DNA of 64,000 nucleotides, from NCBI GenBank assembly GCA_042571085.1, contig JBHPGB010000001.1:3190-67189 (forward strand), given 5' to 3'. Below the pieces are notes generated by a model. The model was not told the origin of the DNA and did not search any database. It saw nothing but the letters and a program-made list of their open reading frames with translations. Of this stretch, positions 37,789 through 38,915 are shown one piece after another; within the stretch, counting starts at the first letter, position 1; each line of letters starts with the position of its first letter. The stretch is from Patescibacteria group bacterium (GTDB taxonomy: Bacteria > Patescibacteriota > Minisyncoccia > Phycocordibacterales > JBHPGB01). A program made the translations under genes and the position numbers.

Positions 37789-37817
37789 AAAAAAGGCCCC
37801 GAGTTGCTCGGGGCCTC
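37789..37817. terminator. Bidirectional GC-rich hairpin between flavoprotein gene and ilvC
   Basis: GGCCCCGAGTTGCTCGGGGCC. Confidence 0.6.
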
Positions 37818-37836
37818 TCCGATTACTGTAATCGGG

Positions 37837-38859
37837 TTAGTTTTTGGACTTGTCTACAAGCTTATTGGCCGTGATCCAGGGCATCATGGCACGCAGGTCT
37901 GCACCCACTGTTTCAATCTGATGCTCTGCATTCAGATGGCGGCGGGCTGTCATCTCAGGATAGTTGGTCTGACCTTCCAGAATGAAGCGTTTGGCATATT
38001 CGCCATTCTGGATATTATCCAGCGCTTCACGCATTGCATCACGACTTTGCTGATTGATGATCTTGGGGCCGGTGACGTACTCACCATACTCCGCATTATT
38101 GGAGATGGAGTAGTTCATATTGGCGATACCGCCTTCGAACATTAGATCCACGATTAGCTTCATCTCATGCAGGCATTCAAAGTAGGCCATTTCCGGCTCA
38201 TAACCACCCTCAACCAGTGTCTCAAAACCAGCCTTGATTAGTTCAACGGCGCCACCACAGAGTACGGCCTGCTCACCGAACAAGTCGGTCTCGGTCTCAT
38301 CCCTGAAGGTGGTTTCGATGATGCCGGTACGGCCGCCACCTATAGCAGAGGCATAAGATAGTGCAACGTGCCTGGCACGGTCGGAGACATCCTGATGAAC
38401 GGCAATCAGATCCGGGACACCTCTCTCTATGACGAACTCACTACGCACGGTGTGACCTGGCGCCTTGGGTGCGATCATGATGACGTCCAAATCGGGACGT
38501 GGTACGACTTGGTTATACAGAACACTGAAGCCGTGTGCGAATGCCAGGGTCGCCCCTTCCTTCAGGTTGGGCTCGATCTGCTCCTTATAGAGCTGACCTT
38601 GGAACTCGTCCGGAGTCAGTATCATGACCAAGTCGGCACCTTTCACTGCTTCCTCGACAGAGGCCACTTTTAGGCCGCAGGCCTCAGCCTTGGCTACGGA
38701 TGTGGAGTCAAGACGCAGACCTACTGTCACATCCACTCCGGAATCCTTCAGGTTGTTGGCGTGTGCGTGGCCTTGGGAGCCGTAGCCAATGATTGCAACT
38801 TTTTTACGTTGGATTATCCCAAGATCGCAATTTCTATCATAAGATATCTTCATCGTCAC
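37837..38859 (-). CDS. ilvC: Ketol-acid reductoisomerase, class I (Pseudomonas-like sequence, GC-rich)
   Basis: 340 aa; appears, from recalled homolog sequence, nearly collinear with class I IlvC of Pseudomonas ([10 protein letters not shown]...; [12 protein letters not shown]...); GC content well above flanks. Confidence 0.88.
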
Positions 38860-38892
38860 TTCCTTTTATTAAGAACAATGTAAATGTTTGTT

Positions 38893-38915
38893 GATTATCA
38901 ACAAACACAGTTTTT
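38893..38915. promoter_or_regulatory. Perfect palindrome TGTTTGTTGATtATCAACAAACA just upstream of ilvC start (operator-like)
   Basis: 11-bp arms, 1-bp centre; 35-55 bp upstream of ilvC start codon. Confidence 0.5.

Follow-up and report, generated by a model that had tools for sequence, protein, structure and literature searches.

A stretch of DNA with a length of 64 kb from a very small Patescibacteria genome with sparse metabolism, referred to here as the window, carries a solitary, GC-rich gene for an enzyme of branched-chain amino acid (BCAA) biosynthesis. Where did this gene come from, does it truly belong to the genome in which it is found, and how is it expressed and maintained there?

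Identification of the ilvC Gene and Its Product

The gene and the sites that define its start are the following.

37837–38853, minus strand: ilvC, class I ketol-acid reductoisomerase (KARI), intact, 338 aa plus stop (Pfam and NCBIfam)
38854–38859, minus strand: GTG-ACG, directly 5′ of the ilvC ATG (from the sequence and a comparison of the N-termini of 120 homologs)
38859–38865, minus strand: Shine–Dalgarno (SD) motif AAGGAAG, 5 nt before the ilvC ATG (direct reading)

In the ORF listing the longest reading frame for ilvC (37837–38859, minus strand) begins with GTG and encodes 340 aa. Translation probably begins with the ATG at 38853, 5 nt after AAGGAAG, giving 338 aa; the NCBI protein also has a length of 338 aa. 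The product matches the Pfam models KARI_N (3e-72, residues 14–177) and KARI_C (2.3e-61, residues 183–326), an order that corresponds to an N-terminal Rossmann NADPH-binding domain followed by a single C-terminal knotted domain, and it has the length of class I enzymes (~330–340 aa). Scores exceed the cutoffs of the NCBIfam models PRK05479/NF004017 (547.9 bits, cutoff 336), TIGR00465 (428.3 bits, cutoff 226), and NF009940 (423.6 bits, cutoff 406). Residues 1–338 align without gaps to residues 1–338 of the class I KARI structures 4XIY from Azotobacter vinelandii, to which the identity is 79%, and 1NP3 from Pseudomonas aeruginosa, which scores almost equally. H107, K130, D190, E194, E226, E230, S249, and S251 are all found in IlvC; these positions are the catalytic and Mg2+-binding residues in the numbering of the class I KARI literature. 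Two blocks around the catalytic residues (27 and 13 residues) are identical to 4XIY. Domain content and alignment thus identify ilvC, at the sequence level, as a gene for class I KARI (EC 1.1.1.86), and the encoded enzyme is presumably active. Although IlvC shares the length, the two-domain architecture, and the conserved active-site blocks of 4XIY and 1NP3, it differs from their source type in being encoded by a solitary Patescibacteria gene without ilvIH, ilvD, ilvE, or leu neighbours, in its AT-shifted codons, and in 27 lineage-specific substitutions, among them a change of residues 141–143 from RGG to IER.

The GTG-ACG site coincides with the position of two extra N-terminal codons (M-S or M-A) in the 340-aa sister clade described below and overlaps the present SD region; it is probably the vestige of an older 340-aa start. 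A mosaic N-terminus was considered, as the first 22 residues are nearer to the 338-aa type than to the sister 340-aa type among the 120 homologs. This was dropped in favor of the simpler account that the start has moved to the third codon, leaving the GTG-ACG vestige, and that AT drift has been strong at the 5′ end.

Phylogenetic Position of IlvC

The closest IlvC sequences outside the species are from uncultured marine-sediment Gammaproteobacteria (P0003 and P0004; 88% aa identity), and among the best 120 homologs the named ones are almost all gammaproteobacterial, two same-species entries aside. In a neighbor-joining (NJ) tree with a support of ~80%, window IlvC and P0003/P0004 form a sister pair in 163 of 200 bootstraps (82%), and window IlvC lies within the 340-aa clade in 160 of 200 (80%). 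Named neighbours in this clade are Polarisedimenticolaceae and Sedimenticola. At the DNA level, three contigs with a donor-like ilvC (L001–L003) are 84.4–84.7% identical to the window, without gaps over 957 nt (37837–38793), and this similarity stops exactly at the stop codon. These contigs have a GC content of 56–57% and the gammaproteobacterial gene order ilvI-ilvH-ilvC-pssA-leuA.

The sequence-only reading had called this gene Pseudomonas-like. The gapless match to 1NP3 and 4XIY bears out that resemblance approximately, whereas Pseudomonas as the nearest kin does not hold, given 79% identity to the Azotobacter enzyme versus 88% (aa) and 84.5% (nt) to marine-sediment Gammaproteobacteria. On these identities ilvC would be more aptly described as marine-sediment gammaproteobacterial. 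The broader proposal of a foreign class I KARI of proteobacterial type agrees with the homologs, with the nesting in the NJ tree, and with the composition of the gene.

Transfer appears to have involved the coding sequence alone. Co-transfer of donor flanks was ruled out, as the window flanks showed no homology to the 3′ end of the donor-like ilvH or to the ilvC-pssA spacer. A plasmid or phage vector was also rejected: in PLSDB and INPHARED, the top DNA matches are ilvC genes with no more than 72% identity, they are mostly located on chromosome-sized records, and none match the flanks. The donor-like gene is alike in protein sequence, in its gapless nucleotide alignment, and in its sister position in the tree, but differs in encoding 340 aa, in its higher GC content at third codon positions (GC3 0.76), in its location within a pathway cluster, and in its terminator and upstream region, which are unrelated to those of window ilvC.

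Composition and Amelioration

The GC content of ilvC is 0.519 and its GC3 is 0.581, compared with a mean GC3 of 0.311 (sd 0.063) for 70 window ORFs (z = +4.3). In a 100-nt profile, GC is 0.46–0.60 for windows starting at 37800–38700 and ~0.29–0.37 on either side, confirming the earlier observation that the gene is GC-rich relative to its flanks. The GC3 of 0.58 is intermediate between the donor-like genes (0.76) and the host (0.31), and of the differences from the donor-like genes 93 are AT-ward and 38 GC-ward. The gene has thus been partly ameliorated toward the AT-rich composition of the host. The drift is greatest in the first ~20 codons; the first ~55 nt of the coding sequence are AT-rich, as are the SD and the promoter, and all of these are contiguous with the rest of the gene.

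Genomic Context and Integration of ilvC

The genes on either side of ilvC are native.

36459–37727, minus strand: HI0933-like/aminoacetone-oxidase-family flavoprotein, native downstream neighbour of ilvC, GC3 host-like (0.33)
39072–40226, plus strand: DUF8173/bactofilin-like secreted protein, native divergent neighbour of ilvC, typical of Paceibacteria

DUF8173 homologs are named Pacebacteria, Paceibacterota, and Yonathbacteria, and the NCBI records for the exact IlvC, for the products of both foreign genes (ilvC and dapD, see below), and for the DUF8173 neighbour read "Patescibacteria group bacterium." The host is a Patescibacterium, probably of the class Paceibacteria. The Pfam scan of window ORFs found no ilvB, ilvN, ilvD, ilvE, leu, or other BCAA genes, in line with the earlier claim that ilvC has no pathway genes nearby; for the ORFs of the ribosomal-protein block that lie outside the scan, syntenic annotated loci show ribosomal proteins. 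The rest of the window consists of genes for ribosomal proteins, for type IV pili, and the like.

A gammaproteobacterial ilvC fragment misjoined into a Patescibacteria contig during assembly or binning would also produce a compositional island with sharp edges, and at least one metagenome contains both Gammaproteobacteria and Paceibacteria of similar kinds. The species is represented by a second MAG (GCA_042577165.1, L004), which bears on this explanation in both directions. Its contig ends inside ilvC (window position 38759), as a misjoin might, but it contains the corresponding ilvC–terminator–HI0933 junction in an independent assembly. This junction is thus replicated in two MAGs, whereas the ilvC–DUF8173 junction is known from the window contig only; the MAGs represent one species and, judging from the accession series, apparently a single submission. 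Further arguments against a misjoin are that native genes flank ilvC on both sides and the exact protein is recorded on one contig only, of 101.6 kb; that GC3 is intermediate and substitutions are AT-biased; that the nearest gammaproteobacterial DNA is 84.5% identical, which leaves no known source sequence for a chimera; and that the AT-rich 5′ end and expression signals are contiguous with the gene. We consider such an artefact extremely improbable. Nesting within the donor clade, amelioration, expression signals, purifying selection, and the junction repeated in the second MAG together argue that ilvC is a single-gene horizontal transfer and not contamination.

The second MAG and the window are 99.3% identical across 8.4 kb of ribosomal-protein DNA. 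Between the two, ilvC has diverged by 1.3% and the adjacent HI0933-like gene by 6.1%, values that suggested an ilvC-specific sweep between two Patescibacteria lineages. This was rejected because, given the identity over 8.4 kb, ilvC is typical and the HI0933-like gene is the outlier.

Among the loci with DUF8173 orthologs, no genome with an empty ilvC site was found. Orthologs with 57–63% identity do not have ilvC nearby, but synteny is not conserved there, and the contig with a 75% identical ortholog ends 126 nt upstream, too short to show the site.

Selection on ilvC

A lone enzyme gene might be a recent passenger without function that is heading to decay. The lack of pathway partners in 64 kb fits this idea, as does the pattern of protein change: unique amino acid changes number 27 on the Patescibacteria branch and 3 on the sister branch, a ninefold faster rate, and those on the former include the radical replacement of RGG by IER in a conserved loop that is normally rich in Gly. 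Constraint may have been relaxed somewhat, or function altered, along with these changes. Several observations nevertheless speak against a passenger. The ORF is intact, with the catalytic residues retained, and has dedicated predicted expression signals. The two MAGs differ in ilvC by 3 nonsynonymous and 9 synonymous changes (dN/dS 0.10, significantly below 1; binomial P = 2e-4 vs. neutrality), and dN/dS against the donor-like genes is 0.06–0.07. The gene is thus under purifying selection. Finally, the dS of ~0.8 to the nearest donor-like ilvC and the 0.18 shift in GC3 point to a gene that has long been resident without being disrupted. A decaying passenger is accordingly an unlikely explanation, if a somewhat less remote one than misassembly.

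The account that we regard as very probable is the transfer of a single ORF from a marine-sediment gammaproteobacterium into a Patescibacterium, followed by amelioration and retention. A Patescibacterium would have taken up ORF-sized DNA from such a donor, with only ilvC arriving out of the usual ilvI-ilvH-ilvC-pssA-leuA cluster and landing between the HI0933-like flavoprotein gene and the DUF8173 gene. It would then have drifted partway to the AT-rich host composition, most of all at its 5′ end, and would now be read from an AT-rich host-style promoter, 5′ UTR, and SD up to an intrinsic terminator, with purifying selection keeping it intact. Because no pathway partners are in sight, the most likely use of IlvC would be to carry out one NADPH-dependent step, reducing a 2-keto or 2-aceto-hydroxy acid supplied by a partner cell, with acetolactate, acetohydroxybutyrate, and 2-dehydropantoate as candidate substrates.

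Expression Signals of ilvC

In addition to the SD, the following signals were identified around ilvC.

38938–38965, minus strand: predicted sigma-70-type promoter of ilvC, TTGACA, 16 nt, TATACT, 11 of 12 consensus positions (consensus scan)
37794–37836, minus strand: tandem pair of hairpins immediately following the ilvC stop (sequence and fold)
38885–38907, no strand assigned: AT-rich palindrome, perfect over 11+1+11 positions, within the predicted 5′ UTR of ilvC (exact match and fold)

The second hairpin (37794–37822, minus strand) begins 18 nt past the stop and consists of GGCCCCGAG-CAA-CTCGGGGCC with perfect 10-nt arms followed by U6. Its fold (−29.5 kcal/mol, z = −5.6) and U-tract mark it as a strong intrinsic (Rho-independent) terminator between ilvC and the native HI0933-like gene. 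With the predicted promoter, 5′ UTR, SD, and terminator, we propose that ilvC forms its own transcription unit. No Rfam match above noise was obtained for 37600–39200, and a known RNA element at ilvC was discarded as a candidate. A separate −10 element, TACAAT, belongs to the divergent DUF8173 gene; it precedes the start of that gene by ~44 nt and is more than 100 nt away from the palindrome.

The Palindrome Upstream of ilvC

The palindrome TGTTTGTTGATNATCAACAAACA, composed of TGTTTGTTGAT-T-ATCAACAAACA, lies 32–54 nt upstream of the ATG and has an arm GC content of 0.27. It is exact over 11+1+11 positions, just as the sequence-only reading had reported for a perfect 23-bp palindrome, which it took for a repressor operator. 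In Markov simulations perfect hairpins with arms of at least 11 nt are expected ~0.2 times per 64 kb, and the window contains 14 of them (17 with arms of at least 10 nt). The palindrome is thus non-random, yet this genome is rich in palindromes generally. It is located downstream of the best predicted promoter, at +24 to +46 of the predicted transcript, and as RNA forms an 11-bp stem with a 3-nt loop (centroid −11.3 kcal/mol).

Searches for further copies gave only negative or chance results. The window contains no second match to the full site or its core, single arms occur at chance level and only inside ORFs, and the palindrome is absent from the loci retrieved for comparison. The exact pattern has 5 matches in genome_contigs and 10 in metagenome_contigs, two collections without the genome of the window, and all are unrelated chance matches. 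A conserved motif was dismissed, as these matches lie mostly inside apparent coding sequence or terminator-like hairpins. One is downstream of a Clostridiales ilvE, which we judged coincidental.

Most likely, the palindrome would act on the ilvC transcript or on its initiation, either as a stem-loop in the 5′ UTR or as a roadblock operator. As an operator of a dimeric repressor controlling ilvC, it would have the advantages of perfect dyad symmetry through to the centre position and of a location past the predicted promoter but ahead of the SD, at which elongation could be blocked by a bound protein. Whereas the terminator palindromes of this genome are GC-cored, this one is AT-rich, and the upstream regions of DUF8173 orthologs do not include it. 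The absence of repeated sites in 64 kb, the chance-level arms within ORFs, and the unrelated matches in both collections argue against an operator, as does a ~25-fold over-representation of perfect palindromes in this genome for other reasons. The scanned neighbouring ORFs (33964–44231) also yielded no DNA-binding regulator or helix-turn-helix (HTH) protein. We know of no operator consensus that the palindrome fits, which likewise counts against this role. An operator is thus possible but rather doubtful. The sole signalling protein in 33964–44231 is a receiver-only response regulator (43845–44231).

A somewhat better candidate, although short of an even chance, is an RNA or terminator-type element. 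The palindrome would stabilise or attenuate the ilvC mRNA as a 5′-UTR stem-loop, shield the divergent DUF8173 promoter from antisense transcription as a weak terminator, or do both. Its position in the predicted transcript is consistent with this, and the stem can be extended via TGTAAA/TTTACA from −11.3 to −18.4 kcal/mol (z = −2.1). T-rich tails are present on both strands, the scan calls the palindrome terminator-like on the plus strand, and terminators account for most of the other perfect palindromes in the window. Against an RNA element, the stem is AU-rich and contains just 3 G–C pairs, the ilvC strand has a poor U-tract (UUUACAUU), folding and direct reading revealed neither a leader peptide nor an alternative antiterminator structure, and Rfam returned no match.

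Comparison with dapD and with Known Cases

The sequence-only reading had paired ilvC with dapD as a second proteobacterial-looking single gene, and this parallel is real.

10580–11815: dapD, second single biosynthetic gene of the window, GC-rich versus the host (NCBIfam)

The DapD catalytic domain is closest, outside Patescibacteria, to gammaproteobacterial homologs (82% aa and 79.9% nt identity). Like ilvC, dapD is a lone biosynthetic gene that is GC-rich relative to the host and has a gammaproteobacterial catalytic domain. Unlike ilvC, which was found in this Patescibacteria species only, dapD is older, as a more distant Patescibacterium has it at the same site, between rplB and rpsS. In addition, a conserved extension of ~140 aa of the host type is fused to the N-terminus of DapD.

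Acquisition of metabolic genes by CPR/Patescibacteria is known, and amino acid biosynthesis is among the rarest categories: 11 HT and 18 GI genes have been reported, in a survey that does not mention ilvC or dapD (PMC12455944). The cases in that survey are alike in that one metabolic gene of non-CPR origin resides in a streamlined genome; for ilvC, it is possible to name the donor clade and to date the acquisition relative to amelioration. The case is a clear but ordinary gene transfer and no new kind of system. It is unusually well resolved, with an identified donor clade, an insert of exactly one gene, measurable amelioration and constraint, and predicted host-style expression signals, and is a concrete candidate for asking how an ultra-reduced symbiont uses a solitary pathway enzyme.

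Buchnera offers a possible precedent, as its IlvC can reduce 2-dehydropantoate in place of PanE (PMC4306246). There, too, a KARI is kept in a reduced symbiont genome in which the canonical pathway is incomplete, with substrate ambiguity as the rationale (PMC4306246). Buchnera ilvC is ancestral and other pan/ilv steps are known, whereas window ilvC is imported and has no pan or ilv partner in sight; a Buchnera-like role would be a working hypothesis.

The relatives of IlvC and of the DapD domain are marine sulfur-oxidising Gammaproteobacteria (Sedimenticola, Polarisedimenticolaceae, Thiohalobacter, and Chromatiales-type), and one metagenome holds both a donor-like ilvC contig and related Paceibacteria. 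Patescibacterial epibionts of Gammaproteobacteria exist (PMC13059738). It is conceivable, if improbable, that ilvC and dapD mark the physical host of an episymbiont and that the imported enzymes act on host intermediates in a pathway shared between cells. Such intermediates would be acetolactate or 2-dehydropantoate for IlvC and tetrahydrodipicolinate for DapD, and the two genes would not be isolated leftovers. Together they provide a testable pointer to a gammaproteobacterial partner. A further GC-rich ORF (46938–47222) was considered as a third foreign gene and rejected, as it overlaps a tmRNA gene.

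Identity of the ilvC Gene Product

We find that ilvC is a functional-looking ketol-acid reductoisomerase (KARI) gene of gammaproteobacterial origin that is stably integrated in this patescibacterial genome and kept there by selection. The gene and its surroundings comprise the following features:

36459..37727, minus strand, HI0933-like flavoprotein gene
37837..38853, minus strand, ilvC
38885-38907, exact palindrome TGTTTGTTGAT-T-ATCAACAAACA, upstream of ilvC
39072..40226, plus strand, DUF8173 gene

The minus strand has a single open reading frame at 37837..38859. Translation probably begins at the ATG at 38853, with AAGGAAG ending 5 nt ahead of it, and yields 338 aa, the length at which NCBI annotates the identical protein. 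The product matches the Pfam models KARI_N (3e-72) and KARI_C (2.3e-61), exceeds the NCBIfam equivalog cutoff of 336 bits with a score of 547.9, and aligns gapless over residues 1-338 to residues 1-338 of the solved class I enzymes 4XIY (Azotobacter vinelandii; 79% identity) and 1NP3 (Pseudomonas aeruginosa). These matches bear out the description of the gene in an earlier sequence-only reading, apart from its length, which had been put at 340 aa. All of the positions that we take to be catalytic or Mg-binding in class I KARI (H107, K130, D190, E194, E226, E230, and S249/S251) are retained. Directly 5' of the ATG, GTG-ACG occupies the position of two extra codons (M-S or M-A) in the 340-aa sister clade and may be what remains of the ancestral start.

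Host Genome and Composition

NCBI lists the exact IlvC, its divergent neighbour, and DapD under "Patescibacteria group bacterium", and the only recorded contig for the exact IlvC is 101,611 bp. Homologs of the DUF8173/bactofilin-like secreted neighbour carry the names Pacebacteria, Paceibacterota, and Yonathbacteria. The rest of the window encodes ribosomal-protein operons, EF-Tu, EF-G, SecY, FtsH, RecG, and type IV pilus genes and lacks biosynthetic pathways, a content typical of Paceibacteria-like genomes. A tRNA-Ile with anticodon UAU, an uncommon bacterial way of reading AUA, lies at 50628-50701.

Against a window mean of 38.7%, ilvC has a GC content of 51.9%, and its GC3 of 0.581 stands at z = +4.3 relative to 70 non-overlapping window ORFs (0.311 ± 0.063). 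A 100-nt profile places the GC-rich block at ~37800-38800, from the terminator through most of ilvC, and the first ~55 coding nt and all upstream DNA are AT-rich; the gene is thus GC-rich relative to its flanks, as had been noted previously. Besides ilvC, only dapD (0.49) and a 94-aa ORF at 46938-47222 exceed +2 sd in GC3. We rejected the latter as a third foreign gene because it overlaps the tmRNA gene, which accounts for its apparent deviation. The two regions concerned are:

47138-47685, minus strand, tmRNA of 548 nt (Rfam RF00023, 50.2 bits; missed by ARAGORN), adjoining smpB (47737-48183)
9702-11815, dapD locus within the S10 ribosomal-protein operon, between rplB and rpsS; also at 8001-9272 of the fetched locus L025 and at 2996-5109 of L027, from a second MAG of the same species

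Origin and Integration of ilvC

After the exact match, the top IlvC hit is a 99% partial copy in a second Patescibacteria MAG, followed at 88% by P0003 and P0004, the nearest proteins outside the host species; among the best 120 matches, those at 79-85% include a long run of Gammaproteobacteria (Polarisedimenticolaceae, Sedimenticola, Thioalkalivibrio, Methylococcales, and mussel symbionts among them). The 88% proteins are encoded on contigs of 56-57% GC in the order ilvI-ilvH-ilvC-pssA-leuA, which is the classical gammaproteobacterial gene order. At the DNA level, ilvC is 84.4-84.7% identical to these donor-like genes over 957 nt without gaps; the match extends precisely to the stop codon, leaving out the first ~60 nt of the gene, and flank similarity to the donor-like loci is absent on both sides. 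In a neighbour-joining tree with 200 bootstraps, 163 replicates joined IlvC to P0003/P0004 as their sister, and 160 placed it within the gammaproteobacterial clade of 340-aa proteins. Because of this nesting, the earlier label "Pseudomonas-like" is right at the class level only, the nearest relatives among homologs and in the tree being uncultured marine-sediment Gammaproteobacteria. The analysis therefore supports horizontal transfer of ilvC and refines its donor from Pseudomonas to this group.

A contaminating or chimeric join of ilvC into a Patescibacteria contig is very unlikely. Native AT-rich genes lie on either side of ilvC within the window, and the ilvC-terminator-HI0933 junction recurs in locus L004 of GCA_042577165.1, an independent assembly of the same species (99.3% identity to the window across 8.4 kb that encode ribosomal proteins); since this second assembly breaks inside ilvC, only one assembly shows the upstream junction. 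Furthermore, the GC3 of ilvC (0.58) falls between that of the donor-like genes (0.76) and the host (0.31), and its differences from the donor-like genes comprise 93 AT-ward and 38 GC-ward changes, a pattern that amelioration predicts and contamination does not. As for a possible source of a chimera, no known gammaproteobacterial sequence is more than 84.7% identical to ilvC. We found no empty-site relative: the gene order near DUF8173 is not preserved among orthologs of 57-63% identity, and the contig of the 75% ortholog is too short.

A 9-nt direct repeat, AATCGGGTT, flanks ilvC at 37830-37838 (overlapping the stop codon) and 38950-38958 (in the promoter spacer); it could reflect insertion microhomology, a target duplication, or chance (rough expectation ~0.04).

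Selection on ilvC

Comparison of ilvC with the donor-like genes gave a dN/dS of 0.06-0.07 at a dS of ~0.8. Between the two Patescibacteria MAGs, the 12 differences in 918 nt comprise 3 nonsynonymous and 9 synonymous changes (dN/dS 0.10; binomial P = 2e-4 vs neutrality). At sites conserved in outgroups, 27 unique amino-acid changes map to the Patescibacteria branch and 3 to the sister branch; many of the 27 are conservative or lie within the N-terminal 20 residues, and one radical replacement, RGG to IER, affects residues 141-143. Such a pattern is consistent with mutation pressure towards AT, perhaps together with slightly relaxed constraint, and does not fit pseudogenisation.

Divergence between the MAGs is 1.3% for ilvC and 6.1% for the HI0933-like gene. 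A recent sweep of ilvC, considered on the basis of these values, was dropped since comparison with ribosomal-protein genes shows ilvC to be normal and HI0933 to be the outlier. The HI0933-like gene (36459-37727; 1033-2298 in L004) has a dS of 0.25 between otherwise 99.3%-identical MAGs, and similarity between the window and L004 stops downstream of it; this resembles a recombination breakpoint or the edge of a variable region next to ilvC. There are eight intergenic differences between the MAGs, and seven of these cluster at 37801-37811, where they alter the inner stem and loop of the terminator that follows ilvC (GGCCCCGAGCAACTCGGGGCC vs GGCCTCAAATTATTAGGGGCC), with the U-tract and outer stem unchanged. 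Elsewhere, the sister MAG contig (L027 from 9158) departs from the ribosomal-protein operon after rplE into unrelated genes (MYG1-like, amidase), whereas the window from ~15868 has two ORFs without a Pfam match (15880-16446 and 16447-17439) ahead of the rest of the operon. Either the region is structurally variable or one of the two contigs is misassembled.

Transcription Unit and Upstream Palindrome

The region's top promoter match is on the ilvC strand (TTGACA at 38965-38960, a 16-nt spacer, and TATACT with its end at 38938; consensus at 11 of 12 positions) and would give a 5' UTR of ~80 nt with the palindrome inside. Two hairpins directly follow the stop codon, the second being GGCCCCGAG-CAA-CTCGGGGCC followed by six U residues (fold -29.5 kcal/mol, z = -5.6), and the HI0933-like gene lies 109 nt downstream. 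Given this terminator hairpin and U run, ilvC looks monocistronic, separate from the HI0933-like gene, and is predicted to be expressed under signals of its own. A separate TACAAT element precedes the start of the DUF8173 gene by ~44 nt and is common to the orthologs of that gene, whose upstream regions lack the palindrome; the stretch ~38854-38990 is therefore specific to ilvC.

The sequence-only reading had placed a perfect palindrome 35-55 bp upstream of the start and proposed a repressor operator; the palindrome is present, at a measured 32-54 nt. Perfect hairpins with arms of at least 11 nt are expected ~0.2 times per 64 kb, making a chance origin unlikely. With arms of at least 10 nt the window contains 17 (~0.6 expected), nearly all of them intergenic with an A-run/GC-core/T-run layout typical of bidirectional intrinsic terminators. 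Unlike these, the ilvC palindrome is AT-rich (arm GC 0.27) and upstream of a gene. Folded as RNA, it yields a stem of 11 bp (centroid -11.3 kcal/mol; extendable to -18.4 kcal/mol, z = -2.1), and T-rich tails follow it on both strands; an RNA or terminator-type element is a tentative, slightly favoured reading. A roadblock operator is not much less likely, and we treat it as a possibility and not a finding. No DNA-binding regulator was detected among the scanned ORFs neighbouring ilvC, and the window contains neither a second copy of the palindrome nor a convincing half-site. The palindrome is also absent from every fetched locus, has no Rfam match, and gave unrelated matches only in exact searches of genome and metagenome collections; the remaining probability goes to a functionless relic.

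The same 21-nt core occurs as a terminator-like hairpin at 5184-5204 of L014, from an unrelated Clostridiales MAG, directly downstream of an ORF whose N-terminus reads as a branched-chain aminotransferase (ilvE); we judged this juxtaposition coincidental. Identical perfect 33-bp palindromes, ATTAATCGGCTCAACC-G-GGTTGAGCCGATTAAT, are found in intergenic DNA at 34475-34507 and 36397-36429, the second just downstream of the HI0933-like gene, and may be a repeated terminator or REP-like element.

Probable Role of a Lone IlvC

As had been claimed, ilvC has no pathway partners nearby: acetolactate synthase, dehydratase, and transaminase genes are all missing from the 64 kb, making it an orphan for the window. 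IlvC would for this reason probably carry out one NADPH-dependent step on an externally supplied substrate, which could be the canonical acetohydroxy acids or 2-dehydropantoate, which the Buchnera IlvC reduces in place of PanE (PMC4306246).

dapD and the Donor Lineage

The companion gene dapD points to the same broad donor group as ilvC. Its DapD domain shares 82% protein and 79.9% DNA identity with gammaproteobacterial dapD, with Thiohalobacter, Sedimenticola, and Chromatiales as named neighbours. The 411-aa dapD ORF, adjoined on the opposite strand by a K+ channel gene, joins a host-like N-terminal extension of ~140 aa (GC3 0.36) to the gammaproteobacterial domain (GC3 0.56). Both the extension and the L2/dapD/S19 position are kept in a more distant Patescibacterium (GCA_054015055.1, 64% aa), which argues that the acquisition is old and that the NCBI annotation of 286 aa is probably too short.

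Horizontal transfer into Patescibacteria is documented; genes for amino-acid biosynthesis are reported to be acquired rarely, one survey counting 11 HT and 18 GI genes of this class and mentioning neither ilvC nor dapD (PMC12455944). The present ilvC is a well-resolved example of such transfer. Gammaproteobacteria are known as hosts of patescibacterial epibionts (PMC13059738). That the donors are physical hosts of this Patescibacterium has a low probability, left to it by the shared donor group of dapD and by co-occurrence in the ENA metagenome ERZ27251186, which contains a donor-like ilvIH-ilvC-pssA-leuA contig (L001) and two Paceibacteria contigs (L006 and L029) with DUF8173 orthologs of 59% and 75% identity, the closer one having the DUF8173-glutaredoxin order of the window.
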